Source of the DNA: a virus
Taxonomy: Duplodnaviria; Heunggongvirae; Uroviricota; Caudoviricetes
Length of the DNA: 37,809 nt
Strand: one strand, 5' to 3'
IMG/VR virus record: IMGVR_UViG_2602041644_000008
Coordinates: 1-37,809 of that record
Part shown: one piece after another, positions 7,269 through 34,889 of the stretch
Numbering within the stretch: the stretch's first letter is position 1
Layout of the letters: every line of letters begins with the position of its first letter
Position numbers and translations under genes: made by a program
Notes under the pieces: model-generated
Databases searched by the model: none
What the model was told of the DNA's origin: nothing
What the model saw: the letters and a program-made list of their open reading frames with translations, nothing else

Positions 7269-7381
7269 ATTTACATCGCACTCCTCTTGTGCCATAGTAA
7301 TTGGGCACTGGCAAAATCCAGTGCCGGGATTGGTCTCCCGGATTACTACAGAGGCACATATGCCGCATAAGCGGTTTTTTT
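7262..7381 (+). ncRNA. Candidate small RNA / terminated leader upstream of the Bro-N antirepressor gene
   Basis: No credible ORF. Hairpins GGCACTGG-CAAAAT-CCAGTGCC (7304-7325) and CCGGGA-TTGGTC-TCCCGG (7325-7342), then CCGC-ATAA-GCGG + T7 (7363-7381). The start is inferred from the promoter above. Confidence 0.35.
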
Positions 7382-7535
7382 ATGTGTAAAGCGCACCTAT
7401 TCTATGGTGAGCTGTGTGGGGGCACCGAAAGGTGCGCCGGGTTCCTTTGTAGCCGGTAAGACCAACTCTGCACAGTTCACCACCATCTGATTGGTCTCAG
7501 CGGTGGTGATTAACCTAACTACAAAGGTGATCGCC

Positions 7536-23150: not shown

Positions 23151-23447
23151 TCACTCCTGTTCACTGGCCTCTTTGGCCATCTTCAAATACTGTTCAGGGC
23201 AATGCGCCATAACGCGCTGAAACAGTTCCAGCGCCAGATTGCGTTGCCCCTCATTAAATGCCATTGCCATAGCGTCCATCGGTGAGATAGCGGAAAACAC
23301 ACGGCCTTTCTCCAGCACCGACCAGACAACGCGACGCCCCTGTTCACTGCTCATGACAAAGCGAATGTCATCAATTTCACGCTGCGCCATGTCACGTTGC
23401 TTACGGGCGTTTTCTTCTTTCAGTTGATCGTCTTCGTAATCTGTCAT
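23151..23447 (-). CDS. Small conserved head-module protein, function unknown
   Basis: 98 aa. Overlaps the portal stop (ATGA type) and ends at the scaffold SD. Confidence 0.6.
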   Translation of the reverse strand: MTDYEDDQLKEENARKQRDMAQREIDDIRFVMSSEQGRRVVWSVLEKGRVFSAISPMDAMAMAFNEGQRNLALELFQRVMAHCPEQYLKMAKEASEQE

Positions 23448-25123
23448 TGTGATTGCCCACCCTGACCACTAACTGCATTCGCCATAGCTGACAAAACACT
23501 CGGATCCGAAGTTTTAGCTTCGCTTAGCGTCTTGGCACCCTGTGCCGCCGCCATCCCCATCGCCATCATTTGTTGCTGCTGTTGCTGCTGTGCCCGTTGC
23601 TGGCGAGCCTGCTCAACCTGTTCCTGCGGAACAATGACGGTTGGAGACACTCCGGACATATCAGCGAATGCATCGATCGCCTGATCAACGTTGAGTTTGT
23701 CGAGAGCTTCTGGTTTCGCTTGCGCAAGTTGACCAATGAAGTTGACCGTAGACGCCAGACTGGACAGGCCGATAGACTTCTGCGCCTGAGCCATGACGGA
23801 AATGTATTCGACCTTCAGGGGCATACCTTCCATCGCGTCAGGCGGTGGCGGCAGCATGTTTTTACGCACCATCATCGAGAAAGAGCGGTCAATGAGAGGA
23901 TTAAGACATTCGTCGTTCAGACGCTCCAGAACCGGCCCCAACATCAGAAGTTTTTCTTCTTTCATTTCGATCACCGCTTCAACAGGCATCGAGCGGGTAT
24001 TGATGTTCTGCAACATCATGAACAGATCGACAAAGTAGGCGCTGTTAATGATTTGACGAGTGTCCTGAATGTCTGCTACCAAATCTGCTGTACTGGGGTT
24101 AACCAGATAAGCAGGCCTGAAGCCATCCTGACCAGTAATCTGATCGATATACGTGATGTCGCCAGGAAGAAGGGAGGCGCGCTGATTCTTGAGGGAAATC
24201 GGAGCAACCATCGGCGGATTGGTGGCTTTATCAATCAACTGCGACTTGCGCTTCTGGAGAAGCTGCAATGCCTTAACAGGTCCAAGCGCCAGCATACCCG
24301 GGCATGATGATCCATAAACATCTTCGCCGTTAACTTCCCAGCGCGGAGCCATAATTGGAAACTCATCGAATCCGGACTCACGCAACAACTTGTCGTTATC
24401 GCCACCAACCTCGTAATAAACCGATTTGAATGGCTTGTTCTTGCTATCCAGCTTCGATGTATCGCGGTCAATGTTCGGGTAAACCGAATGCATCACTTCA
24501 ATCCACTTCTCGTAGGTGCCGCTTTCCCACATGCTTTTTACGGATTCGCTGACGTTATTTAGCCCGAACTCCTGAACAAGCTGACGAACAGTCATAGAGA
24601 ACTTGCGAAAACAGGTGTCCACACTGCCACGAGGTGAGTTAGCCAGGTAGTAACTGCCTATCGGGAATGGCATTGTGCGAATGATGTCCTCGTCATCCTC
24701 CAGCACTGCCATTGCACCAGTGCTGTATGTGCCGAGGCTTCCGTATAACTGCGGCAGCGACTGATAGAGATTCGACTTATTGAACATATCGTTCATGCGG
24801 TTCTGCACCGCCTCAAGCCACAACTTAACAGGGCCATAATCCATCATTTCAGGATCTGGCGTAGCCAGGCGAAACCACGGACGCGCGGGGCTTGTGATGC
24901 CTGACATCATGCCGCTGGCGAGAGTGCGCGCCGCCATAGTCCCGGTCGAATCAATAATGCGTGTATTGCGTCGATCGTTACGGTTGACCTCAGAAGTCAG
25001 AAAGCGGGAACCACGCGGGTTGATGTAATCACTCAACTCGCGCCAGTGCGGCTCGAACGACTGACGCTCGCTTTCAAGTTGTGCGAACTGTTTGTTCAAT
25101 CGCTCTTTAGTTGTTTCCGCCAT
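23444..25123 (-). CDS. Portal protein (T7-type head-to-tail connector)
   Basis: 559 aa. The N-terminus ...RLNKQFAQLESERQSFEPHWRELSDYINPRGSRF... is typical of podovirus-type connectors. Gln-rich C-terminal tail. SD GGAG. Confidence 0.85.
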   Translation of the reverse strand: MAETTKERLNKQFAQLESERQSFEPHWRELSDYINPRGSRFLTSEVNRNDRRNTRIIDSTGTMAARTLASGMMSGITSPARPWFRLATPDPEMMDYGPVKLWLEAVQNRMNDMFNKSNLYQSLPQLYGSLGTYSTGAMAVLEDDEDIIRTMPFPIGSYYLANSPRGSVDTCFRKFSMTVRQLVQEFGLNNVSESVKSMWESGTYEKWIEVMHSVYPNIDRDTSKLDSKNKPFKSVYYEVGGDNDKLLRESGFDEFPIMAPRWEVNGEDVYGSSCPGMLALGPVKALQLLQKRKSQLIDKATNPPMVAPISLKNQRASLLPGDITYIDQITGQDGFRPAYLVNPSTADLVADIQDTRQIINSAYFVDLFMMLQNINTRSMPVEAVIEMKEEKLLMLGPVLERLNDECLNPLIDRSFSMMVRKNMLPPPPDAMEGMPLKVEYISVMAQAQKSIGLSSLASTVNFIGQLAQAKPEALDKLNVDQAIDAFADMSGVSPTVIVPQEQVEQARQQRAQQQQQQQMMAMGMAAAQGAKTLSEAKTSDPSVLSAMANAVSGQGGQSQ

Positions 25124-25137
25124 TTCAATGACTCCGG

Positions 25138-25344
25138 TTACTGACCAAGCAGCGTTTTACCGCTGGTATTAGCGGTTGATGTGTCACCCTGAGAACCGGT
25201 AAGCAGCGTAGAACTACGACCAGCAGCAGCGCGACGGCGACGTGTTTCTTCGTCGCGGGCATCAACAACGGCGGCATCCTGCTCCTGTGGTGCTGCCTGA
25301 ACTTCTGGTGTTGCAGGCACTGATGGTGAGCTACCCATGCACAT
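25138..25344 (-). CDS. Small protein preceding the portal gene, function unknown
   Basis: 68 aa, SD GGAG 8 nt upstream, Ala/Arg/Thr-rich and probably disordered. Confidence 0.55.
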   Translation of the reverse strand: MCMGSSPSVPATPEVQAAPQEQDAAVVDARDEETRRRRAAAGRSSTLLTGSQGDTSTANTSGKTLLGQ

Positions 25345-25434
25345 ATCAATGACTCCGTACGCAATTAAATTATTACCAATTTAACCACATATGATTTATT
25401 TATCGTAGATAATTGACATTTAACGCACGAGTTA

Positions 25435-25449
25435 TTACCTTTCAGGTAA
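25435..25449. promoter_or_regulatory. Operator copy (exact)
   Basis: TTACCTTTCAGGTAA, identical to the copy at 6041. A TTGACA hexamer lies at 25413-25418 on the plus strand, 16 nt upstream. Confidence 0.75.
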
Positions 25450-25771
25450 GCAAAGAGTTCATTCCGGTTATTAACCTGACTGGCTTGTCGTTAAATTGAA
25501 CAGGTGGAGTGAGCTTTTATTTTGAGCAGTACGGCGTATGGCACATGCGCCGATAGCGGTCTGGATACGTTTAAGGGGTACCCTCCCTTGCTCGGGCAAA
25601 CGAACCAGGTAGCCGGAATGTGCAAGTCGAGCGGTTTTATTCCGCGCACGGGGATTCACCATCCCGGCGATTCGGTGTGACGCCTCGGAAGAGACGAGGG
25701 TACAACGATGAGAGCATTTATGGAGCCGCGACAAAGTGTGGCGCCTTAACAGGCTAAGTGCTCTCAGCGTT
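25450..25771 (+). ncRNA. Unassigned structured noncoding segment, probably co-transcribed with the downstream tRNA
   Basis: Stops occur in all three plus-strand frames. Long-range pairing GTACCCTC (25578-85) with GAGGGTAC (25696-703). Local hairpins TTGC-UCGG-GCAA (25588-99), CGGAAT/ATTCCG (25614-19 / 25639-44), GGGAT-TCACC-ATCCC (25651-65), GGCG/CGCC (25666-69 / 25681-84) and AGAGCA/TGCTCT (25711-16 / 25759-64). I could not assign it to a known family. Confidence 0.45.
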
Positions 25772-25848
25772 GTGGCATTAGCTCAGTTGGACAGAGCAAC
25801 CGCCTTCTAAGCGGTTGGTTGCAGGTTCGAATCCTGCATGCCACGCCA
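25772..25848 (+). tRNA. tRNA-Arg (anticodon UCU, reads AGA)
   Basis: Hand-folded 77-nt cloverleaf: acceptor GTGGCAT/ATGCCAC, D arm GCTC-AGTTGGACA-GAGC, anticodon arm ACCGC-CTTCTAA-GCGGT, variable loop TGGTT, T arm GCAGG-TTCGAAT-CCTGC, discriminator G, encoded CCA. Confidence 0.9.
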
Positions 25849-25891
25849 GAATCACGCCTAAGGACCGTGATGCCAGAAGTTCCAGGTGCTT

Positions 25892-25933
25892 GGCGGTGAC
25901 AGTTTCCCTTGAAGGACTATCACCGCCCTTTTT
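25892..25933 (+). terminator. Rho-independent terminator about 45 nt after the tRNA
   Basis: GGCGGTGA...TCACCGCC stem (8 bp) followed by CTTTTT. An additional ATCACG/CGTGAT hairpin lies at 25851-25871. Confidence 0.7.
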
Positions 25934-26011
25934 ACAGCAGGACGCCATTGCGATGACTTCATGCTGTAAACCCGTACAGCCACGGAAGGCATAACTCATT
26001 GCTTCCAGTTC

Positions 26012-26035
26012 GCCCGGTTCGCCGGGCATTTTTTT
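26012..26035 (+). terminator. Strong rho-independent terminator just upstream of the Gp49-like gene
   Basis: GCCCGG-TTCG-CCGGGC followed by A and T7. Ends 11 nt before ATG 26047. Confidence 0.8.
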
Positions 26036-26046
26036 AAGGTGAGATT

Positions 26047-26403
26047 ATGAACGACCAGCAAATCGAAAAAGAAATCGTTGAGAAAGGCAAAACCGCTCCG
26101 CGAGTTACGCCTCAATATATCGAAAGCATCATTCTTGAAGAGCATTTCTTTACTGCTTATGACGGCATTCGTGCTGCCAATATGGGCGTTGGCGATACGT
26201 GGACAGCGCATAAATCTACAGACCTCCTTACTTTCTGCGTACTGGTGCTGAAGAATGGCTTCACCGTCACCGGAGAGAGCGCATGTGCAAGCCCGGAAAA
26301 CTTTGATGCAGAAATTGGTCGGAAGATTGCCAGGCAGAATGCTGTAAACAAAATCTGGATGCTTGAAGGTTACTTGCTGAAGCAGAAGTTAAGCGAGCAA
26401 TAA
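26047..26403 (+). CDS. Gp49-like phage protein (N4 gp49 / Sf6 gp66 family), function unknown
   Basis: 118 aa, SD AAGGTGAG. The block NGFTVTGESACASPENFDAEIGRKIARQNAVNKIWMLEGYLLKQ matches my recollection of that family. Confidence 0.7.
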   Translation: MNDQQIEKEIVEKGKTAPRVTPQYIESIILEEHFFTAYDGIRAANMGVGDTWTAHKSTDLLTFCVLVLKNGFTVTGESACASPENFDAEIGRKIARQNAVNKIWMLEGYLLKQKLSEQ

Positions 26404-26407
26404 CACC

Positions 26408-26419
26408 GTGACATGTCAC
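26408..26419. repeat. 12-bp perfect palindrome GTGACATGTCAC, copy 1
   Basis: Lies between the Gp49-like stop and its terminator. The 14-mer CGTGACATGTCACA is identical to the copy at 28672-28685. Confidence 0.7.
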
Positions 26420-26423
26420 AAAC

Positions 26424-26452
26424 AGCCAGCCTATGAGCTGGCTTTGTTTTAT
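26424..26452 (+). terminator. Terminator after the Gp49-like gene
   Basis: AGCCAGC-N6-GCTGGCT followed by TTGTTTTAT. Confidence 0.7.
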
Positions 26453-26493
26453 CCTCACCAGAGGATATCAACGACATTATCCCCACCAGCGGA

Positions 26494-27969
26494 TTAAGCA
26501 TAGGGATCGTAATCTGTAATGGCCTTGCCTTGCTGGTTCTGCTGACCTGGAATTCGCAGACGCTTCGACACAGGGAAAGCAAACGTCAGCAATAGCGCAT
26601 CGCCTTTACCCGGCGAACGCCCAAGCCGCTCCTTGATATCTTCCTTCGGTTCGATAACGATTTTACCGTCCACTCGAACTTTGTACTCTGCCGCCGACAG
26701 GTCGTCCGCTGTTTCCTGGTCATCAAGCATCCCGCCCAGCCTCAGCCATGTCTTGCATGAGTTGAACATCTCCCCACGCTTGTTGAGCATCTGCGGGTCA
26801 GTAGACGCGCCACCGAACGGAACAAGTTGCCATGTGCGCCCCCAACCGTCACCGATTGACTTCAGACCGGTACCGTAACCAAAGTCGATGAACACTGCGT
26901 CAGCCTGATACAGGTCTTCAAAGTCAGCGATACGCTTCGCCATAATCAGATCGTCGGTAGTCTTGTTGCCAGTCCACAGCACCTTACTGTGTAGCCCCTG
27001 CCGCAGGTATATCACCGCGTCATCAACGCCTGAATATGCCGGGTCAACACCGATTATCACCGGAGCATGCGCCACCTGCGCAGCGGTTACCACCCGTTTC
27101 ATTGCCTCATCAGTAAGACCGGTAGGGATAAACTGCAATTCAGATGCATCAGGGAATATGCCGCGCACACGGATTTTAACGAAGTCGCTGTCTTCCCCGT
27201 AGTCATCAACCCATTTCTGCAACTGCTGTTTGTTAGTGCCTTCCACCGTCCGGCTGTCAATCTGCGCAGTTTTCCAGCGGTGTTTATATTTGCGGAAACA
27301 TTCGCGGAAACGCCCGGTGTTACGTGTAGGGTTTCCGAACGCCACCCAGATAATCTCAGTGTCTTCGTCCGTAAGCGCACCCTCAGCAACTTCCCACACC
27401 AGATCCGCAATGTTCGACGCTTCATCGAATACCACGATGATGCGTTTGCGCTCGTTGTGTAGTCCGGCGAATGCCTCAGTGTTGTGCTCAGACCAGGGTA
27501 TTGCGTCAGCCCGCCACCGCTTGTCGTGCCCAGGGTCATTGCTGTACATCGCGGTAGCGGTACAGGTAAACCAGTCTTTCGTGATAGCAAGGTTAGACCA
27601 CTTGATAATTTCCGGCCAGGTCTTCGTTCGTAGCTGGTTGTCGGTGTTAGCGGTCACCACAACCTTACAATCCTCGCAAGTGGACATGCCCCAGTTGATC
27701 AGCATTGAGATGAATGCGGATTTACCAATACCGTGACCAGAAGCGCGTGCCAGCATAAGCGGCTGATAGCGCGTCTCTGGATTCTGCAGGTGATCACGTA
27801 TCTCTCGGAACGCATCAGCCTGCCACTGACGTGGGCCGGTGGCATGTGCCAGTTCAGTCCCCTCTTCCCCCCACGGGAACGCATAGAGAGCATAGCCAAG
27901 CGGATCGTGAGTGAACCCTGCAATATCCTCGATCAACTGCTCTTCAGGAGATAACGCTGTATCTGTCAC
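26494..27969 (-). CDS. Terminase large subunit
   Basis: 491 aa. ATPase-like N-terminal half (ARASGHGIGKSAF Walker-A-like; IIVVFDEAS Walker-B-like). ATGA overlap with the small-subunit gene. Confidence 0.85.
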   Translation of the reverse strand: MTDTALSPEEQLIEDIAGFTHDPLGYALYAFPWGEEGTELAHATGPRQWQADAFREIRDHLQNPETRYQPLMLARASGHGIGKSAFISMLINWGMSTCEDCKVVVTANTDNQLRTKTWPEIIKWSNLAITKDWFTCTATAMYSNDPGHDKRWRADAIPWSEHNTEAFAGLHNERKRIIVVFDEASNIADLVWEVAEGALTDEDTEIIWVAFGNPTRNTGRFRECFRKYKHRWKTAQIDSRTVEGTNKQQLQKWVDDYGEDSDFVKIRVRGIFPDASELQFIPTGLTDEAMKRVVTAAQVAHAPVIIGVDPAYSGVDDAVIYLRQGLHSKVLWTGNKTTDDLIMAKRIADFEDLYQADAVFIDFGYGTGLKSIGDGWGRTWQLVPFGGASTDPQMLNKRGEMFNSCKTWLRLGGMLDDQETADDLSAAEYKVRVDGKIVIEPKEDIKERLGRSPGKGDALLLTFAFPVSKRLRIPGQQNQQGKAITDYDPYA

Positions 27970-28562
27970 TGATTACCATCCTGACGTTCTTTGAGTCGCT
28001 TCCTGGCTGCCGCTATGCGATCAGCAATTGTCACATTCACATTAACATCCAGGCGTTCTTTGAACGCGTTGACATCAACATGCTTACCAATCAGCTCAAG
28101 GTTCTTCACCTTGTCAGGCCATTTAATTTTTTTGAGGATTGTCTCTATCGAATCCTCGTTCATGTTCATGATGGTCGATGACAGATCAAAGCCACTAAGC
28201 GTAGTGCGCCAGATTTTCGGCCACTCACGGATTGGTTTAAGGCTCCCATCGTCGTTGAGGATGTCGATCACGTCCATCTGGTCGATCTCCACCAGGCGCA
28301 TGAGAACGTAATCAGCACTGACGCGCATTCGTTTGTTGCGCTCCTCCATCAACTCGGCAATCCGTTTTTGAATGCGTTCATCGCGCATCATGACACTGGC
28401 TTTAACTGCCGCTGTATTTGGGGAGAATCCTGCGTTAATCGCTGCCTGAGTTTGGTTTTCAGGCGTTTTGATGTATGACTGGCAATAAGCCTCCTGCATT
28501 GTTGTTAGTGGCTTAAATTGCGTTGATTTGCGTTTATAGGTTTTAGGTTCAGCAGGCATCAT
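27966..28562 (-). CDS. Terminase small subunit
   Basis: The track ORF extends to 28640, but that extension contains a terminator hairpin and two operator copies. ATG 28562/28559 (MMPAEPKTYKRK...) follows SD GGTGG. The HTH-like segment QEAYCQSYIKTPENQTQAAINAGFS is typical of Terminase_2-type small subunits. Confidence 0.75.
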   Translation of the reverse strand: MMPAEPKTYKRKSTQFKPLTTMQEAYCQSYIKTPENQTQAAINAGFSPNTAAVKASVMMRDERIQKRIAELMEERNKRMRVSADYVLMRLVEIDQMDVIDILNDDGSLKPIREWPKIWRTTLSGFDLSSTIMNMNEDSIETILKKIKWPDKVKNLELIGKHVDVNAFKERLDVNVNVTIADRIAAARKRLKERQDGNQ

Positions 28563-28576
28563 AACCACCGTGGTAA
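28562..28576. promoter_or_regulatory. Operator-like copy (1 mismatch) over the terS SD/start codon
   Basis: TAACCACCGTGGTAA, 18 bp centre-to-centre from the exact copy at 28580. Confidence 0.5.
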
Positions 28577-28579
28577 TAG

Positions 28580-28594
28580 TTACCGTTGTGGTAA
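28580..28594. promoter_or_regulatory. Operator copy (exact) in the terminase leader
   Basis: TTACCGTTGTGGTAA, about 20 nt upstream of the terS start. Confidence 0.7.
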
Positions 28595-28600
28595 TAGTAC

Positions 28601-28631
28601 CATGCAAAATAAAGCCGCCATAGTTGGCGGC
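28601..28631 (-). terminator. Rho-independent terminator in the late-operon leader
   Basis: The minus strand reads GCCGCCA-ACTA-TGGCGGC followed by TTTATTTTG. It lies between the palindrome at 28673 and terS. Confidence 0.7.
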
Positions 28632-28672
28632 AGTATTCAAAATCCATCAAATTCATCATGCATAATCTACTC

Positions 28673-28684
28673 GTGACATGTCAC
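28673..28684. repeat. 12-bp perfect palindrome GTGACATGTCAC, copy 2
   Basis: Overlaps the TGA stop of the 115-aa gene, about 40 nt upstream (minus-strand sense) of the leader terminator. Confidence 0.7.
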
Positions 28685-29028
28685 ACTATTAATTTCGTTT
28701 CATGCCAGCCTTTAGTCACCCAGCATTGCGAGTCACCATTACACGGGCATGAATTAACGGGAACTCTCTCGCCGCACTTACCGCAAAGTTTTCTGCTGAT
28801 CGATTTTATACGCCCGCGCACACGTGCATCATCCTGGCGGATCAGCAGCGCGATGTACTCGGCCATTTCATAGGGATCGCGACCAGGGCGCCGGGCGGCG
28901 CAGTTCCGCGCCAGCATTTCCTGCTCCTGCTTATCCAGCACCAGTTCAATTTTGCGCTCACCGGCGGCGGACTGCCGAGCGCGCTGCGCGGCTTTGCGTT
29001 CTGCGGGGGATTTAGCCACGAATCGCAC
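28681..29028 (-). CDS. Small basic protein with C-terminal Cys cluster; candidate late-gene regulator
   Basis: 115 aa with a GTG start. Arg/Ala-rich N-terminus (KSPAERKAAQRARQSAAGERK) and C-terminal CGKCGERVPVNSCPCNGDSQC. Last gene before the late leader. Confidence 0.55.
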   Translation of the reverse strand: MRFVAKSPAERKAAQRARQSAAGERKIELVLDKQEQEMLARNCAARRPGRDPYEMAEYIALLIRQDDARVRGRIKSISRKLCGKCGERVPVNSCPCNGDSQCWVTKGWHETKLIV

Positions 29029-29134
29029 TCCACGCCAGATTGATTAATGACTCCCAGGCAATATAAACCCGGATACCAGCAGCCAGGCCGAAACCAATCA
29101 CCATGGCATAAAGCAGAGCGTTGCACTTGTTCAT
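29012..29134 (-). CDS. Unlisted 40-aa single-TM peptide ORF
   Basis: ATG overlaps the TAA of the DUF551 gene (TAATG). Sequence MNKCNALLYAMVIGFGLAAGIRVYIAWESLINLAWSAIRG. Below the ORF-track size cutoff; no independent support. Confidence 0.35.
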   Translation of the reverse strand: MNKCNALLYAMVIGFGLAAGIRVYIAWESLINLAWSAIRG

Positions 29135-29904
29135 TACTTCACCTCCTGCGGTGGTTCCGGTAGCGGCATCCAGTGGGTTGCTTGCTCAATACCATTACCC
29201 GGCTTAATCGTTGCATCTCCGCGCCGAAAGGTGCTTCCGGTATAGCGTGCGGAGCATATTAGCGGTTCAACCAGAGAGCTATCGAAATTCACCGAAATAA
29301 GCACGTTCTGGCCCTTTTCAGGCATTCGCTCACTACAGCTTATCCAACCATCCGGAGTTACCGGAGTTGGTCCATCGAATTCGGGCATGTCAGGACCTTT
29401 TCTGATAGCTTTAGCCAGCTCCAGCGGGTCATCGTAAAGCCAGTCGCCAGTTTGTGGGTGATTTGCTTCTGCAAGCTGCGCAGCCCATTCAAGACCATCT
29501 TTTTGACCTTGGAGATAATCAAGTGGCAACTCTTCATGATTACTTGCAGGTTCGGCACCATGAAGCATGGCGGCGCGGCAGGCGTTCCAGCCTCTCACCT
29601 CTGCAATAGCGGCAACAGCATCAACCGCGTACATGCTAAGAGGATTAGGCATTGGTTTTTCTTCCGGTACTACTGGCACTGGAGGGGTGGCGTAGAGTGG
29701 AACTCCTCCCCCTCCACCAGAAAATTCATTGCGAGCGTTATACTCACGACCATCTGCGTCATCACGCATCCACGCCACCGCTTCTGCTTCCAGCGATGCC
29801 AGTGCGATTTCATAAGCCCGACGCTCAATATTGTCTCGGACGTCCAGGCTGCCTATACGCTCTCTGATTTCTTTAATCAGTTCTTTGTCGGTTAAAGTGG
29901 TCAT
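29134..29904 (-). CDS. DUF551-domain protein
   Basis: 256 aa. The C-terminal WISCSERMPEKGQNVLIS...ATHWMPLPEPP is the DUF551 signature common in enterobacterial prophage early regions. Confidence 0.7.
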   Translation of the reverse strand: MTTLTDKELIKEIRERIGSLDVRDNIERRAYEIALASLEAEAVAWMRDDADGREYNARNEFSGGGGGVPLYATPPVPVVPEEKPMPNPLSMYAVDAVAAIAEVRGWNACRAAMLHGAEPASNHEELPLDYLQGQKDGLEWAAQLAEANHPQTGDWLYDDPLELAKAIRKGPDMPEFDGPTPVTPDGWISCSERMPEKGQNVLISVNFDSSLVEPLICSARYTGSTFRRGDATIKPGNGIEQATHWMPLPEPPQEVK

Positions 29905-30434
29905 GCTGCGTTTCCTTCTTTCTTATTAACAATTACACCGTCATATATTTCATTAAGGTGTCCTCTTAGCTCCATGCGCCTTAATGCAGATAACATGTAA
30001 TCGCATTCAACCTGCTTATTCCCAGTAAATGGCTTATCGTCAGGATTACCCCAACAGCAATTACCCCTGGGCCATCCATGTACTTTCCGTACTCTTCCGT
30101 TAACAACGTGAAGTAATCCCCAGCCGGGAGGTAAATCCTCAACTGAAATAATTTCCGGCTCACTAATAAAGAATCGCCAGTCGCCCATGCCAAGTGAGGG
30201 ATTTTTACGGAAACGCTTTTTTCTATCTGCCAACAAGTCAGCACGAGAACACTTCGCCTCTATCAGGCATGATGCTGAATTTCTGAATCCCATAGCATCT
30301 GGCTGTTCTCCGGTACTGGTTACAGCAACAAAGCGGTCATGAAAGCAAACCTTGAACCCGTTGCGCTTAAGGAACTTGTACGCAATCTGACAGAGTTCGT
30401 GGTGTGTTAACGCCATATCACTTTCCTTTCCCAT
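29901..30434 (-). CDS. PD-(D/E)XK-type nuclease-fold protein
   Basis: 177 aa; a more likely start is ATG 30416 after AAGGAAAG. Motif ...GEQPDAMGF...CLIEAKCSRADL has the D...ExK arrangement. Confidence 0.5.
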   Translation of the reverse strand: MGKESDMALTHHELCQIAYKFLKRNGFKVCFHDRFVAVTSTGEQPDAMGFRNSASCLIEAKCSRADLLADRKKRFRKNPSLGMGDWRFFISEPEIISVEDLPPGWGLLHVVNGRVRKVHGWPRGNCCWGNPDDKPFTGNKQVECDYMLSALRRMELRGHLNEIYDGVIVNKKEGNAA

Positions 30435-30452
30435 GTTGTCATGTGTTAGTCC

Positions 30453-30716
30453 TTATCCTGCTGTGCTTTCAACTGATGAGGGGAATAAAATCTTTTCATC
30501 AAATCCGGCATTCATATCATGGACAGCAACACACCAATCCATCGACGAACGATTATCAAGAGCCTCCATGATTTCATCCATGCGGCGCAGGTCATACAGG
30601 TAAATGCTTTTATCGCCAATGGTGTAAAAACCAATTTTTTTCGGTGATGGGCAGCGATCAAGAACGTCCTGTAATTCGCTCAACCATGCTTGTTCTTTTT
30701 TTGTCAAAGTTGCCAT
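30453..30716 (-). CDS. Hypothetical early protein
   Basis: 87-aa ORF in operon context, 1 nt after the upstream stop. Confidence 0.55.
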   Translation of the reverse strand: MATLTKKEQAWLSELQDVLDRCPSPKKIGFYTIGDKSIYLYDLRRMDEIMEALDNRSSMDWCVAVHDMNAGFDEKILFPSSVESTAG

Positions 30717-30717
30717 A

Positions 30718-31212
30718 TCACTCTCCTTTGATGCGAATGCCAGTGGTACTCATTCTCCTGATTTCCCAGAGCACACGAGGAACACCACCGTTTCCGACCG
30801 GATCGCGCTTACTCCGCATGGCGACGCTTGATTCCGCCCAGCTTTTTCTTGGAGGAAGCTCTTTCACACGAACAAAACCAGCTGCGCGAAGAGATGCTCC
30901 TGATTCATCTGCCTGGGTGTACGTAATACAACGTTGATAACCCATAGCCTTTGCTGCCCGCCAGACAGCACCATAAAGCGCGCTGTTAGCGTTGCGTTCT
31001 CCTGTGGTACATGTGCGATTTACTTCAAGCGTTAATCCATCGTCCAAATGTCGTGCAACAGGTCGACCAGCTGTCGCCACACCTATCAATTCTCCGGCAT
31101 TATTTCTCAGACCAATGCTGAATTTATGCCCCACTGGTGGTTTATTGTGTCGGTGGTGCTGTGCGATAAATTCCTGCGCCGCTTTCAGCGTTATAGGTGA
31201 AATGACCATCAC
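30718..31212 (-). CDS. GNAT-like (acetyltransferase-fold) early protein
   Basis: 164 aa. The pattern AQEFIAQHHRHNKPPVGHKFSIG...LIGVATAGRPVARHLDDG...LEVNRTC...ALYGAVWRAAKAMGY recalls a phage-associated GNAT-related family. Not verified. Confidence 0.45.
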   Translation of the reverse strand: MMVISPITLKAAQEFIAQHHRHNKPPVGHKFSIGLRNNAGELIGVATAGRPVARHLDDGLTLEVNRTCTTGERNANSALYGAVWRAAKAMGYQRCITYTQADESGASLRAAGFVRVKELPPRKSWAESSVAMRSKRDPVGNGGVPRVLWEIRRMSTTGIRIKGE

Positions 31213-31901
31213 TCAGACTCCTCCTTGATGCCAGCGGCGCGGGAATCATTCCATCGCTTTACTTCTTCACGAATTACGTCAATGCATTCTTTCGAATCCA
31301 TTAGGTAATCTTCATCAAAAAGACGTTCCTGTTCGTTTTCTATCGCAACAATGATTGCTTCAACTAATTTTTGTGCCTGAGAATCACTTTCTAACTCTGC
31401 AATGCGCTTCTCTGCGGCTTCCAACTTCTCGCGCATATCGTCAACGTACTCGACCAGAGAACCGCCAGCAGGAATTTCGCACTCCTCGACCAGTTGGAAG
31501 TAGATATCAGCTGCGGCCCGTGTGTTGCTATGCCTAGCGTCGCCCATCTCACCTTCACGAAGAGCATCGCGTTCGGCGGTAAGATTGGCTATTTTGCTGT
31601 CTTTGCCTTCCAGCTCAACGCGCAGCTTCCCTACCGTTAGCGCAATATCCTCGTTCTCCTGATCGCGGGATTTGATGTATTGCTGGTTCCTTTCCCGTTC
31701 ATCCAGTAGTGCCAAAGCAACCTTTGGATTAAAGGCAGCAATAAATTCAGCGTTGTTTTTCAGAACGTGTTGCGCAATGGCCTGACCACTTAGTCGGACC
31801 TTATAACCACGTGCGCCACGGTGTGGTTTATATGAGTCCCAGTCTCCCCACGTTGCTTTTTCTGCCTTTTCACGCAGTGCCTGATAGTTAATGTTGGTCA
31901 T
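31209..31901 (-). CDS. Ead/Ea22-like coiled-coil protein
   Basis: 230 aa. NAEFIAAFNPKVALALLDE and long coiled-coil segments are typical of Ea22-like prophage proteins. Confidence 0.65.
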   Translation of the reverse strand: MTNINYQALREKAEKATWGDWDSYKPHRGARGYKVRLSGQAIAQHVLKNNAEFIAAFNPKVALALLDERERNQQYIKSRDQENEDIALTVGKLRVELEGKDSKIANLTAERDALREGEMGDARHSNTRAAADIYFQLVEECEIPAGGSLVEYVDDMREKLEAAEKRIAELESDSQAQKLVEAIIVAIENEQERLFDEDYLMDSKECIDVIREEVKRWNDSRAAGIKEESE

Positions 31902-31902
31902 A

Positions 31903-32202
31903 TCACATCACCCTGAAGCCGTTGCATTTACGTAAAAAATCGCAGATATAGCCCTTCATTTTTTCGTGCCAATCTCGATCATTCCCATTGCACCAACCAT
32001 CAGGTGGAGTCCAGTTTTCTATCAGAGCAGCCATTTTCTTTGCTTTCGCCGGAGTAGCTGTTGCGGTATCGCAGTAATGACGAGTGTCAACCAACGTATC
32101 CATACCATCGATATCAAGTACGCAAAACCATGTGTGATTCGGAATTCCTACAGGTGGTATTTGTTGCCCACGTCGACGTTTATCAATAAGATATACACTC
32201 AC
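31903..32202 (-). CDS. Hypothetical early protein
   Basis: 99-aa ORF tightly packed in the operon. Confidence 0.55.
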   Translation of the reverse strand: MSVYLIDKRRRGQQIPPVGIPNHTWFCVLDIDGMDTLVDTRHYCDTATATPAKAKKMAALIENWTPPDGWCNGNDRDWHEKMKGYICDFLRKCNGFRVM

Positions 32203-32768
32203 TGGTTACCTCCTTTGCGAAGCTCTGCGGCGATATCTTCGAGAACGCCATCAGAGAATGAGCGGTCAAAATCGCCTTCCGGCGCATTAGCCATAAACTC
32301 AGTAGAGGTAAGAATCATCCGGGCAATATCCGCGGCGTTCTTCGCAGTATCATCAATAAAACCAGCTTCCCAGGCAGCCAGCATTCTGTTCGCCACAAAG
32401 TAAGCGCCCTCCTTGCGTGCTTCAGTCTTCACTTCAGCTAGGAAAGCATCGGTGGCTGGAATGGGCTTTTGTGGTGATATAGCAATGCGAATTGTCTCAA
32501 GGTCTGGAGCTGTTTCCGCTGTTGGCACCTTGATATAACCCGTCTGCACCCCATTCATGATGAACCTGCGACGGTCATCACATATCGCCTTAAGCCCCGC
32601 ATTCTCCGCTGCCAGCGCATTAGCACGCACCAGTTGCACTTCCAGTTGCGTTGCCAAATCGCTGATCAGCTTTGTCACACTGCGCATATCAACGGCACCA
32701 CATTCTGCTTTCAGTTCCGAAGCCATCTCATGCCCGGCGGCAACTAACCCTTTGATATTACTTTCCAT
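32199..32768 (-). CDS. Hypothetical early protein
   Basis: 189-aa ORF, SD GAGGGTAAAG. Confidence 0.6.
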   Translation of the reverse strand: MESNIKGLVAAGHEMASELKAECGAVDMRSVTKLISDLATQLEVQLVRANALAAENAGLKAICDDRRRFIMNGVQTGYIKVPTAETAPDLETIRIAISPQKPIPATDAFLAEVKTEARKEGAYFVANRMLAAWEAGFIDDTAKNAADIARMILTSTEFMANAPEGDFDRSFSDGVLEDIAAELRKGGNQ

Positions 32769-32829
32769 CTTTACCCTCGCTTATCCACATAACTTATTGA
32801 TTACACTGATAACTAAAAAGATCGTCGAT

Positions 32830-33174
32830 TCAGAACTCTTCGATGTTCCAGCCACCACCTGCTTTCTTTGGCTTAACCGTTACCCCGATGATTCGGAACG
32901 GATACTGATCTGCGGCGACTTTGGTTTTCACCCTGGCGTCGTCGGTCCAGAAACCTTTCACTTCGTGCAGTTCCATCTCGCCGGTGGCGAGCATCACAGC
33001 AAAATCGGGCGTATAGAACGTGTTGTCAGCTAACCGCAACTTGATACCCTCGAATCGATACCAGGCGATTTCCCCTGCACGTTTACGCTGCTCAAGGTGC
33101 TGGCAATACGCAGATTCTGTTTTGTTCATCTGGCCTGTTTTGAGTCGACCAAGAGCCTGCATCTGTTTTCTCAT
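32830..33174 (-). CDS. DUF1064-type putative nuclease/resolvase
   Basis: 114 aa. YTPDFAVML...ELHEVKG is the PD-(D/E)XK-like core of DUF1064 proteins. Confidence 0.65.
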   Translation of the reverse strand: MRKQMQALGRLKTGQMNKTESAYCQHLEQRKRAGEIAWYRFEGIKLRLADNTFYTPDFAVMLATGEMELHEVKGFWTDDARVKTKVAADQYPFRIIGVTVKPKKAGGGWNIEEF

Positions 33175-33177
33175 GAT

Positions 33178-33192
33178 TTACCCATGAGGTAA
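33178..33192. promoter_or_regulatory. Operator copy (exact) abutting the DUF1064 start codon
   Basis: TTACCCATGAGGTAA; ends 4 nt from ATG 33174 (minus strand). Confidence 0.7.
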
Positions 33193-33233
33193 TTAAAAAC
33201 CACATAAGACACGAAATCAATAGATCTTAGAAC

Positions 33234-33261
33234 ATTTTATTACCTAGCAGGTAATTATCAA
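33234..33261 (-). promoter_or_regulatory. Near-consensus internal early promoter with an exact operator copy (33240-33254) filling its spacer
   Basis: The minus strand reads TTGATA-N16-TAAAAT, and the 16-nt spacer contains TTACCTGCTAGGTAA. A weak GCGC-GATA-GCGC + T7 hairpin lies just upstream at 33270-33289. Confidence 0.65.
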
Positions 33262-33291
33262 GACGTAAAAAAATGCGCTATCGCGCTGGTA

Positions 33292-34092
33292 TTACTTGAT
33301 AAATCCTGCCGCCTTTCCCCGCCTGTATTCCTCCATCAGCCACTGCGCCGGTGTTATTCCCCCCAGGGTAGCGGCGTTAGGCATACACCCGAAACTTCGC
33401 CCTGGTGGATGGTAAACGCCTCTCCCTGTGTCCGGAGGCGTACTCATGGGTTCTGGCTTTGCCTGTATGCTGATCACCGGATCGGGTATCTGCTGTCCGG
33501 AAGCCACCTTTTTCGCCCAATCATCAAGCAGCCTGCGCGCGTGTTTCTCAACCTCAATCTCGCTAAGCTGGCGCTGATACATTGCACGGCGGGTATCACA
33601 TACGACCCAGTACATAACCGGATGCCGCCACGGGAATCTTTCGGGACCACCAGGATATAAACTTTTTTCCTTGCTGTACCGGTGAAACTCCGCCATCACA
33701 TCGTCAATGGTGACGCCAAGAACCATCTTGCTGTCTTTACACCACTTGATAAATTGCCCTGGCGACGGCCAGAACGGAGATTCACTGGCGCGGGCGTGGC
33801 GCATACCAGCAGAAACCTGTTCACGGGTTCGGATCCCCCCTTCGGCAAACGCAGCAATCCACTGCTGTTTTGCAGCAACTTCCTGCTCTGGCGTCTTCAG
33901 GTTGGTTACCACTGCCGCCGGAAACAGTTGTTTCAACTGTTTGAAAAGGGCATCAACAAGCCTCTCTGCTGACATGTTCACTACGTTGTCATTGTTGGTG
34001 TACTGATGCTCATAACCTGACATGCGAGAAAGGGCTTCTCCGTCACGGTTTTGTATCGCGGTAAAAACGTTGTTCACAAGAAATCCTCCCAT
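33292..34092 (-). CDS. Lambda P-like replication protein (helicase loader)
   Basis: 266 aa. The alternative start GTG 34077 has SD GGAGGA and a GTGA overlap with the O-like stop. The block QQWIAAFAEGGIRTREQVSAGMRHARASESPFWPSPGQFIKWCK parallels lambda P RRQWVLAFRENGITTMEQVNAGMRVARRQNRPFLPSPGQFVAWCR. Confidence 0.85.
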   Translation of the reverse strand: MGGFLVNNVFTAIQNRDGEALSRMSGYEHQYTNNDNVVNMSAERLVDALFKQLKQLFPAAVVTNLKTPEQEVAAKQQWIAAFAEGGIRTREQVSAGMRHARASESPFWPSPGQFIKWCKDSKMVLGVTIDDVMAEFHRYSKEKSLYPGGPERFPWRHPVMYWVVCDTRRAMYQRQLSEIEVEKHARRLLDDWAKKVASGQQIPDPVISIQAKPEPMSTPPDTGRGVYHPPGRSFGCMPNAATLGGITPAQWLMEEYRRGKAAGFIK

Positions 34093-34889
34093 GCTTCAGG
34101 GCTGTTCCAGTGCGGAACGTTGTTATCAGGTAATGTTGATTGCTTCTGTCTGCTAATCTGCAGCCGCCTTGCCAGCTTCTGCTCCCACTGTGCCTGATGG
34201 TATGCCCTACCCTCAGCCATCCAGTAAATTCTGAACTCTGCAAGTTCCTGTGCCGTTGGCAGACTGTCCAGGTAGATCCCCTGCAATGAGCTTTTCCGAA
34301 GAAAGTCATCTGATGGCTGCCATTGTTCATGCATGACAAATTTGCCTAATTGCCCTGGCCCACCAGGAGGAACAAAGTTATTCATCACGGCGTTGTTTGC
34401 GCCGGGGTCATGATGCACAGAATCCCCGTTTTTTGTCCTGCTCTCCCTCTCTTGGTTAAATGACTGGTTATATGACTGGTTCTGGATCCCGTTTTTGGGA
34501 TCATTCAACATCCCGTTTTTGGGATCATTCAACATCCCGTTTTTGGGTATATTCCCGTTTTCGGGAACATTACCGTTTTCGGGTTCATTACCCCCTTCCC
34601 GGTTGCCTTTAATGTTCCCGTTTTTGGTTATATTAAGAGAGAAAACCCGCACTCTTTTCGTCGCTCCCTTTCTCTCTCCGGTATCTGAAATAAGCCCCAT
34701 TTTCATGAGCGATATAAGCCCGGCCTGCACGGTTTTTTTATTCAGGCAAGTGTCTTTAACGAGGCGTTCTATGCTGGGGTAGCAGAGGTTATATTCATCG
34801 GCTCTGTCAGCCATCGAGAGCAGTATGAGCTTTAATGACGAGCTACCTGGATCTGTCTCCCAGGCCCAATCTGTTGCATGTCTGCTCAT
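34074..34889 (-). CDS. Replication initiator (O-like functional analogue; N-terminal winged HTH)
   Basis: 271 aa, SD GGAG. N-terminal wHTH (LKLILLSMADRADEYNLCYPSIERLVKDTCLNKKTVQAGLISL). The central repeat-encoded NGN/PKNG segment coincides with DNA iterons. Lies directly upstream of the P-like gene. Confidence 0.75.
   Translation of the reverse strand: MSRHATDWAWETDPGSSSLKLILLSMADRADEYNLCYPSIERLVKDTCLNKKTVQAGLISLMKMGLISDTGERKGATKRVRVFSLNITKNGNIKGNREGGNEPENGNVPENGNIPKNGMLNDPKNGMLNDPKNGIQNQSYNQSFNQERESRTKNGDSVHHDPGANNAVMNNFVPPGGPGQLGKFVMHEQWQPSDDFLRKSSLQGIYLDSLPTAQELAEFRIYWMAEGRAYHQAQWEQKLARRLQISRQKQSTLPDNNVPHWNSPEAWEDFL
34460..34629. repeat. Origin-like iteron array inside the initiator gene
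   Basis: TCCCGTTTTTGGGA-type units start at 34487, 34511, 34535, 34553, 34571, (34589 degenerate) and 34616, with spacings of 24, 24, 18, 18, 18 and 27 bp. A tandem ATGACTGGTT x2 lies at 34460-34482. Confidence 0.8.

Follow-up and report, generated by a model that had tools for sequence, protein, structure and literature searches.

A structured, pseudoknotted RNA in the early-operon leaders of Uetakeviruses, lambdoid phages and P1-like phage-plasmids

What is the G+C-rich stretch that lies immediately 5' of a tRNA-Arg gene in the IMG/VR virus record IMGVR_UViG_2602041644_000008, and what might it do there? The window, by which we mean the whole stretch of DNA analysed (37,809 nt), is a prophage of the epsilon15/phiV10 type (Uetakevirus), and in BLAST searches 551 nt round the element aligned with phiV10 and the O157 typing phages at 98.9% identity. 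The original prediction, made from the sequence alone, had placed a helix-dense, non-coding plus-strand RNA at 25450-25771, 5' of the tRNA. Comparison with homologues supports such an RNA and corrects its extent: the conserved unit is 25531-25777 (plus strand, about 245 nt), with a sharp 5' edge at 25531, where homology to the lambdoid and phage P1 copies first begins, and a 3' end that overlaps the first bases of the tRNA. It is a folded, pseudoknotted, non-coding RNA, composed of a 5' domain of about 170 nt (helices P1, P2, P4 with a pseudoknot, and P5) followed by a P6/P7 hairpin, and there is strong support for its being a genuine new structured family of a familiar general kind, the phage early-leader RNA. 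Phages P1 and P7 are always named as phages below, to keep them apart from the helices.

As had been noticed from the letters, the element is G+C-rich relative to its upstream flanks (0.573 at 25531-25771, against 0.407 at 25450-25530 and 0.295 at 25345-25449), and its plus strand has no long open reading frame (ORF), the sole long ORF being an antisense one of 87 aa that starts with TTG (25471-25734). For the coding status of the family, 149 copies were dereplicated to 59 representatives below 93% identity. No open frame runs across these 59 on either strand, and the antisense-protein reading was rejected, the frame of the window ORF being stop-free in 17 representatives only. The alignment is made of invariant blocks parted by length-hypervariable segments, with compensatory changes, and the lengths of the variable segments (26-50 nt for the P2 cap, 19-32 nt for P3) have no bias towards multiples of three. 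The check that the original prediction had proposed, covariation and three-base periodicity among homologues, thus revealed compensatory changes and neither periodicity nor a conserved frame.

The fold was examined in two alignments. Alignment A1 is a plain (unfitted) MAFFT alignment of 27 diverse sequences, with features given in window coordinates; a covariance model (R1) was built and matched 100 of 100 viral contigs, and the resulting alignment A2 holds 115 distinct sequences. The parts of the RNA are the following:

25532-39 with 25545-52, plus strand: P1 hairpin, whose loop is the invariant GGCAC (25540-44)
25556-57 and 25560-63 with 25606-09 and 25612-13, plus strand: P2 helix, enclosing a variable cap (25564-25605)
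25614-25628, plus strand: junction, CGGAAUGUGCAAGUC; the invariant stretch within 25608-25628 is CCGGAAUGUGCAAG
25631-25645, plus strand: P3, a small variable hairpin (GCGG/CCGC) that differs in sequence and length between copies; its pairing is read from the window only
25651-54 with 25662-65, plus strand: P4, with three of its four pairs changed on both sides in A1
25657-60 with 25674-77, plus strand: pseudoknot between the P4 loop (CACC) and GGUG, with the conserved GGCGAU between
25683-87 with 25695-99, plus strand: P5 hairpin, CCUCG-GAAGAGA-CGAGG, with the conserved loop GAAGAGA at 25688-25694
25701-06 with 25769-74, plus strand: P6, whose 3' strand overlaps the first tRNA bases
25707-20 with 25755-68, plus strand: P7, which forms with P6 a stem of about 20 bp and encloses a hypervariable insert (25721-54)

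Standard pairs make up 96.5% of the cells of this fold in A1, and 21 of the 51 pairs are changed on both sides; none of 500 column shuffles was as good, and when one arm was slid by 1-3 columns as a control, 27-45% of the cells were paired. The larger alignment A2 has double changes in 29 of 43 pairs. Compensatory changes are spread over the helices. The P1 hairpin exchanges G-C for A-U at columns 6/18 and shows G-U, G-C, A-U and C-G at columns 4/20; one P2 pair is C-G in 16 sequences of A1 and U-A in 11, another G-C in 25 and A-U in 2, without any mismatch. A pseudoknot pair is C-G in 57 sequences, A-U in 24 and unpaired in none. Both sides have changed in three of the five P5 pairs in A1 and in four of five in A2, the loop staying conserved, and in the joint P6/P7 stem the same holds for 10 of 20 pairs (A1) and 18 of 20 (A2). 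About 40 nucleotides of the 245 or so are invariant, and a 19-nt block, GGTAGCCGGAATGTGCAAG (25608-25626), is identical in all 27 aligned homologues. A second pseudoknot is possible between GCAC of the P1 loop and the invariant GUGC at 25620-23, where neither side varies.

G-U pairs account for more than a tenth of the paired cells. Read from the opposite strand they would be A-C mismatches, which identifies the plus strand as the one that folds. Folding of single sequences gave z of about -2.5 on both strands, hence no decision between them; the evidence beyond chance is comparative and does not come from single-sequence folding. RNAalifold by default replaced P1 with a long-range helix between GGCACAU and AUGUGC, a solution overruled by the P1 covariation at the two column pairs given above. 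The helices that had been drawn by eye fared differently. The 6-bp stem 25711-16 with 25759-64 proved to be part of the covarying P7. The long-range helix 25578-85 with 25696-703 does occur in the minimum free energy fold, but its 5' arm falls within the P2 cap, which is missing from many homologues; we rejected it because this cap is not conserved and because its 3' arm competes with the covarying P5 and P6. As to the tetraloop hairpins, the loop containing GGAA is the conserved P5 loop, whereas the UCGG hairpin (25588-25599) sits inside the variable P2 cap.

The RNA had been said to match no known family, and this held. At the gathering threshold, the whole window matched only C4, isrK and tRNA in Rfam 15, none of them over the element. 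At E<=10 no family matched the element, either within the 761 nt of 25300-26060 or when it was searched alone against all models, including tmRNA, RNase P, 6S, riboswitches, ribozymes, GOLLD, ROOL, C4, DicF and STnc100, and ten of its conserved sequence words are all absent from papers in the searchable literature. The likeness to GOLLD and ROOL that had been suggested is loose only. These RNAs are about 500-800 nt long, come chiefly from Firmicutes along with other phyla, and form multimeric RNA cages. Like them, the present RNA is a structured prophage RNA with some copies beside tRNA genes; unlike them, it measures about 245 nt, a fraction of their size, it leaves their Rfam models unmatched, and exact-word scans located it only in Enterobacterales, in phages of this order and in a single phage recorded on Stenotrophomonas.

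How widespread is it? BLAST homologues were of three kinds. Full-length relatives are found in Uetakeviruses of Escherichia coli, Klebsiella, Salmonella and Enterobacter. The block from 25531 to the tRNA start, about 83% identical, is found in lambdoid phages, including cdtI, mEp460, Stx2c and Stx2a phages, 1720a-02, mEp390 and the phage recorded on Stenotrophomonas. The first 165 nt or so of this block recur in phages P1 and P7, in D6, SJ46 and RCS47 and in hundreds of P1-like plasmids. A 175-nt core is present in 1840 of 5426 complete E. coli genomes (34%), and among the matches listed there none of 60 had an annotated feature under it. The RNA has stayed unannotated although no bacterial system has been studied more closely than E. 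coli with its phages, and although its carriers include Stx-converting phages, phages P1 and P7 and the uropathogenic E. coli strain UTI89. The exact 19-mer GGTAGCCGGAATGTGCAAG occurs in at least 120 IMG/VR viral contigs. When species-representative genomes were scanned for exact words, all real matches but one fell in Enterobacterales; the other exact 17-mer matches outside this order lack the companion motifs, and their number is about that expected by chance. The sole exception is a contig of a Bacillota metagenome-assembled genome (L184), where the 17-mer is accompanied by TGGCACATG.

Each phage carries one copy: a full-sensitivity search over the whole window and over 24.5 kb of mEp460, which comprise both early operons, returned no second. 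Contig L032 has tandem copies on the minus strand (3938-4153 and 4734-4958), about 800 nt apart, the second of which is probably decaying, with substitutions at otherwise invariant positions.

We then looked at the position of the RNA relative to genes. Three phage groups that are unrelated to one another, namely the Uetakeviruses, lambdoid phages without N (Stx phages among them) and the P1-like phage-plasmids, have it in sense orientation within the leader of an early operon under repressor control, and in the lambdoid and Uetakevirus copies it is close to the 5' end of the transcript. In 48 of 95 non-identical contexts the RNA lies 113-306 nt downstream of a same-strand repressor gene of the cI/LexA type (helix-turn-helix plus Peptidase_S24). 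The mEp460 repressor gene ends in its own terminator, and two TTGC-N7-GCAA operators, common to the cI-cro region, flank a promoter-like site about 40 nt 5' of the RNA; this layout makes the RNA the first element of the pL transcript. An early-left operon of 11 genes lies beyond a terminator of -21 kcal/mol, with no promoter-like site between in a consensus scan. No N-type antiterminator is annotated in this mEp460 operon, and a PHROGs search of the first downstream genes of nine contexts gave no antiterminator family. The mEp phage collection has been reported to be Nus-dependent (PMC11893012). The RNA occupies the spot where lambdoid phages keep key early control devices (nutL/N, putL).

The surroundings differ in the other groups. 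In phages P1 and P7 the RNA is part of the ban operon, which C1 controls; a tRNA lies 14 nt upstream of it and ban itself 75 nt downstream. ARAGORN calls the phage P1 tRNA a tRNA-Met(CAT) and the phage P1 record a tRNA-Ile. The phage P1 ban leader also bears tRNAs and a dicF-like region. Most copies, the lambdoid ones, have no tRNA nearby, P1-type copies lie 3' of a tRNA, and the tRNA-bearing Uetakevirus copies lie directly 5' of tRNA-Arg. Some copies consist of the 5' domain alone directly before an ORF, and some stand 30-75 nt before a start codon. The window itself is arranged as follows:

23444-25123, minus strand: portal gene, upstream of the RNA
25138-25344, minus strand: small ORF between the portal gene and an AT-rich gap
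25413-25441, plus strand: putative early promoter read from the sequence, TTGACA (25413-18), 17-nt spacer, TACCTT (25436-41)
25448-25530, plus strand: promoter-proximal leader outside the conserved core, containing a remnant of a P6/P7-type hairpin module
25772-25848, plus strand: tRNA-Arg(TCT), called by ARAGORN and by the Rfam tRNA model (73 bits)
25849-25933, plus strand: terminated small RNA-like unit read from the sequence, with a hairpin (25892-25927) and then a U run, which closes the cassette described below
26012-26035, plus strand: second intrinsic terminator from the terminator scan, preceding the 118-aa ORF
26047-26403, plus strand: ORF of 118 aa, Phage_gp49_66 family (Pfam PF13876, E = 1.6e-34), followed by the convergent large-terminase gene

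The AT-rich gap 5' of the leader (G+C 0.30) bears the promoter-like sequence, from which transcription would start near 25448; the consensus promoter scan missed this site because its -10 is weak. A Klebsiella-type copy (L105) has TTGACC...TTATTACCTTT upstream in an arrangement that resembles that of the window, and in the epsilon15 record the depositors marked repressor and IHF sites where the promoter of the window would correspond. The leader remnant gave a weak partial match to model R1 (25453-25518, 9 bits). The hairpin at 25892-25927 was scored by the terminator scan at about -23 kcal/mol, a value taken from the near-identical phage copy L002.

What follows the 5' domain varies. The copies of phages P1 and P7 end after helix P5, and mEp390-type copies carry a different 3' part. 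In the P6/P7 unit, ACAAC and GUUGUGG bracket a long stem with a variable loop; a P5-like hairpin often precedes the unit. Free-standing modules of this type recur in related early leaders, beside tRNAs and terminators: after the tRNA-Thr of phage P7, after the tRNA-Ser of D6, twice in the phage P1 ban leader, downstream of the core in mEp390, and immediately after terminators. We located them at the following positions in the collected sequences:

L009, 907-975 and 1115-1208: free-standing P6/P7-type modules
L007, 1207-1300 and 1464-1561: free-standing P6/P7-type modules
L010, 101-194 and 426-538: free-standing P6/P7-type modules
L015, 2283-2384: free-standing P6/P7-type module
L013, 2322-2425: free-standing P6/P7-type module

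Such modules, whose 3' strand resembles boxA, may be RNase III or punctuation sites. Within the RNA, the insert of helix P7 ranges from about 35 to 110 nt and comes as discrete alleles common to otherwise different scaffolds, one of which is shared by the window, mEp460 and one Klebsiella copy. Some alleles bear T-arm-like GGUUCGAUUCC hairpins, and ARAGORN called no tRNA in these. The conserved 3' strand of helix P7 (GUGCUCUUUCC or GUGCUCUCAGC; GUGCUCU(U/C)) resembles the core of boxA, and in lambdoid copies a GC-rich hairpin follows it after 12-14 nt. Three members have, after the 5' domain and in place of P6/P7, a small hairpin with a canonical or near-canonical boxA-like GCUCUUUAA(C/U/A)A (L094 at about 3362, L038 and L051; sequences UGCUCUUUAACAAUC, AGCUCUUUAAUAA and GCUCUUUAAAAAUC).

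The mobile unit is larger than the RNA: it is a cassette of some 400 nt, closed by a strong terminator, which passes as a whole from one phage group to another in the manner of a moron. A terminator on the sense strand was found in 113 of 127 loci; counted from the start of the RNA, its end is at a median of +405 nt, and in many loci it scores about -20 kcal/mol. Between RNA and terminator the lambdoid copies carry a module with a 7-bp stem resembling a tRNA acceptor stem, GUGGUGA...CCGG-loop-CCGG-UCACCAC, and the terminated unit that follows tRNA-Arg in the window aligns with a unit at the same place in mEp460 and UTI89 (UGCUUUGGCGGUNNCAGUUU...ACCGCYCUUUUU). Their positions in the collected sequences are:

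L001 3241-3370 and L007 1558-1677: acceptor-like-stem module, with a hairpin just before the 3' strand
L001 3340-3440 and L191 about 3840-3945: terminated small unit in homologues

A generic test for acceptor-like stems after the element was uninformative because a shuffled control scored 0.89. The phage P1 relative of the acceptor-stem module scored 33.4 bits against Rfam STnc100, below the threshold of 47, and STnc100 identity was not retained for this neighbouring module; nor was DicF identity for the downstream terminated unit, whose match was also sub-threshold (14.7 bits) and leaves a relation unproven. A 2026 preprint describes STnc100/PasD as prophage small RNAs (sRNAs) associated with tRNA-like sequences, and the Pas/STnc100 sRNAs differ from the present RNA. 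In phage Tyrion, the Rfam int-alpA RNA scores above its threshold downstream of the cassette (L006 2900-2964, plus strand; 44 bits versus 35.8).

What could such a leader do? We lean, tentatively, towards a cis-acting leader RNA that would make RNA polymerase resist termination, put-like in its action. The nascent RNA would fold on leaving RNA polymerase, its invariant core would act in cis upon the elongation complex, and transcription could then pass the strong intrinsic terminator or terminators of the long untranslated leader, as well as any termination there that depends on Rho, and enter the early genes. This would be RNA-based processive antitermination of the kind known from HK022 put or the rrn boxA leader, possibly with the use of Nus factors. 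In the Uetakevirus copy, tRNA 5' processing would then free the RNA from the transcript and set its 3' end, RNase P cleavage at the tRNA 5' end being part of general tRNA maturation. The position in the pL leader, the terminators ahead of the early genes, the failure to find an N and the boxA-like sequences count in favour of antitermination.

The nearest comparison is with HK022, a lambdoid phage without the N antiterminator, in which putL lies just downstream of pL with terminators further on (PMC9378689). The put RNA is about 70 nt long with two stem-loops, acts without a dedicated protein factor, and has sites downstream of both pL and pR (PMC9378689); it suppresses termination by binding the zinc-binding domain of the RNA polymerase beta-prime subunit. 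Like putL, the present RNA is in its lambdoid carriers a cis-encoded, structured sense RNA just downstream of a repressor-controlled pL. Unlike put, it is about 245 nt long and has helices P1, P2, P4, P5, P6 and P7 and a pseudoknot; it is present once per phage, whereas HK022 bears putL and putR; and its carriers in the mEp collection are reported to be Nus-dependent, whereas put needs no protein factor. Model R1, run with filters off against HK022 24000-34500, a region in which the put sites were not pinpointed, gave at best 11.6 bits to a generic hairpin, and HK022 is absent from the BLAST match lists for the element. In size, architecture and, over the HK022 stretch searched, sequence, it falls outside the put family, from which it also differs in copy number. 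The nut and rrn boxA signals are likewise early-operon leader sites, and the boxA-like strand of helix P7, with the hairpin that follows it in lambdoid copies, resembles them; in contrast to our RNA, they are short linear or hairpin motifs with no counterpart of a 170-nt invariant pseudoknotted domain. Since no N was found in the mEp460 early-left operon or among the first downstream genes of nine contexts, and since the boxA-like strand is paired in helix P7, we do not class the RNA as a nut site. Were it an antiterminator, it would explain early-left expression in a large group of N-less lambdoid prophages, would be a second, structurally unrelated case of RNA-mediated processive antitermination, and would give a handle on the induction of Stx phages.

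Several observations weigh against antitermination. Terminator-like hairpins were also found on the antisense control strand, in 90 of 127 loci, and the downstream terminator is part of the mobile cassette, so that it may just end an RNA-only transcription unit. The RNA is single in each phage, with none in the rightward operon. It is three times the size of put and far more conserved in sequence. The boxA resemblance is short, and the boxA-like strand of helix P7 is base-paired. In phage P1 the RNA lies about 2.4 kb from the promoter, past three ORFs, and only weak terminators come after it. Finally, epsilon15 (L008 1550-1720), a viable phage, has kept the P1 hairpin and the start of P2, after which its sequence resumes 3' of the first terminator; through this natural deletion it is without the RNA core, the tRNA and terminator 1. 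The RNA is therefore accessory in Uetakeviruses, where only a single small ORF is found downstream.

The main alternative, possible though we would not call it probable, is that processing sets free a stable RNA which acts in trans. The element would then be one gene of a mobile cassette made of RNAs alone, in the order structured RNA, tRNA or tRNA-like module, small terminated RNA, and early in infection its invariant core would bind a conserved factor or RNA of the host, for instance as decoy, sponge or regulator. Its release could be due to RNase P at the abutting tRNA, to tRNA 3' processing in phage P1, and perhaps to RNase III in the 20-bp P6/P7 stem. The arrangement next to tRNAs fits this, the 3' end overlapping the 5' end of tRNA-Arg in Uetakeviruses and the 5' end lying 14 nt after a tRNA in P1-like copies, as does the occurrence of tRNAs and a dicF-like region in the same phage P1 ban leader. 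So do the acceptor-like-stem module that follows the lambdoid copies, weakly related to the prophage sRNA family STnc100, the terminator of its own with which the cassette moves as a unit between phage groups, the dispensability seen in epsilon15, and the discrete alleles of the helix P7 insert, swapped between scaffolds. Prophage early operons, moreover, already give DicF and c4 RNAs by processing. DicF (of the dicB operon of Qin), the c4 RNAs and the CI RNA owe their release to RNase P, RNase III or RNase E. DicF, the c4 of phages P1 and P7 and the P4 CI RNA are, like the present RNA, non-coding RNAs embedded in repressor-controlled phage operons; they differ from it in being antisense regulators of 50-90 nt with known targets, whereas it is larger and pseudoknotted. 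An antisense role of the c4/P4-CI kind was rejected for the helix P7 insert, the complementarity being not above chance: the longest exact complementary match between the window insert and the rest of the prophage is 9 nt, and most shuffled inserts gave 9-11 nt. Against action in trans, too, copies with the 5' domain alone directly before an ORF look like a cis leader, and the RNA was found only in repressor-controlled operons of repressor-bearing phages, not in clearly virulent ones.

A broader idea, which we hold with little confidence, is that the 5' domain represents a new class of RNA machine in temperate phages of enterobacteria, be it an RNA-only processive antiterminator that, in contrast to put, recruits the Nus/boxA machinery of the host, a ribozyme or a host-factor decoy. 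In each case it would be made before anything else once the repressor is lifted, in Stx phages, P1-like phage-plasmids and Uetakeviruses alike, and the helix P7 insert would add an exchangeable module for specificity or cargo. Should the RNA act in trans or be a ribozyme, this would mean a new phage-host interaction.

A new self-cleaving ribozyme, cutting the early transcript beside tRNAs and so separating modules or giving a protective 5'-OH end, is improbable. Phage genomes commonly contain self-cleaving ribozymes, in some cases beside phage tRNAs; the highly conserved core, the nested pseudoknots, the variable peripheral hairpins and the adjacency to tRNAs in two phage groups would all suit such an activity. 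However, no Rfam ribozyme matched at E<=10, no cleavage-site architecture is recognisable, the core of about 170 nt exceeds most small self-cleaving classes, and most copies have no tRNA nearby.

Slightly less probable still is that the RNA is a tRNA precursor leader or processing domain and nothing else, aiding the adjacent phage tRNA, which was one of the roles first proposed for it. In every Uetakevirus copy that has a tRNA it does abut tRNA-Arg on the 5' side, with P6 overlapping the acceptor stem, but the link to tRNA proved not to be general. Most members have no tRNA in reach, P1-type copies lie 3' of a tRNA and are without P6/P7, and conservation of the 5' domain does not depend on a tRNA; the lambdoid copies without tRNA and the P1-type copies 3' of one make a mere tRNA precursor domain unlikely.

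We regard as very unlikely a riboswitch-like leader that senses a ligand or signal and tunes the next gene to the state of the host. The invariant, pseudoknotted, pocket-like core in a 5' leader and its distance of 30-75 nt to the start codon in some copies are in keeping with it, but there is no conserved expression platform: the core is followed by a hairpin module, a tRNA, an ORF or boxA, the terminator comes 100-250 nt further on with other RNA modules between, and no Rfam riboswitch matched. A small minus-strand protein, as annotated for mEp460_037 and phiV10, can practically be dismissed despite the TTG-start ORF of the window and the ORFs that several database records place there, given that segment lengths are not biased towards multiples of three, that conservation takes the form of blocks and compensatory pairs, and that no frame is conserved, for which last reason the annotated ORFs mEp460_037, mEp390_036, Tyrion gp54 and the phiV10 'hypothetical protein' are probably spurious. 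A practical gain of the present analysis is the correction of such ORF annotations over the region.

Two further features of the window were observed. Downstream of the cassette, a short plus-strand unit (25959-26035) ends in the terminator at 26012-26035; its only Rfam hits, RyhB with 18 bits and anti-hemB with 13.5 bits, are both weak and at chance level, and it may be another small RNA or a mere terminator leader. Elsewhere, at 7305-7487 (plus strand), isrK (74.7 bits) and C4 antisense RNA (78.2 bits) stand side by side. This pair is a P1-type immI immunity module within a Uetakevirus prophage, and it also adjoins Rha/antirepressor genes in mEp460, 1720a-02 and the UTI89 prophage.

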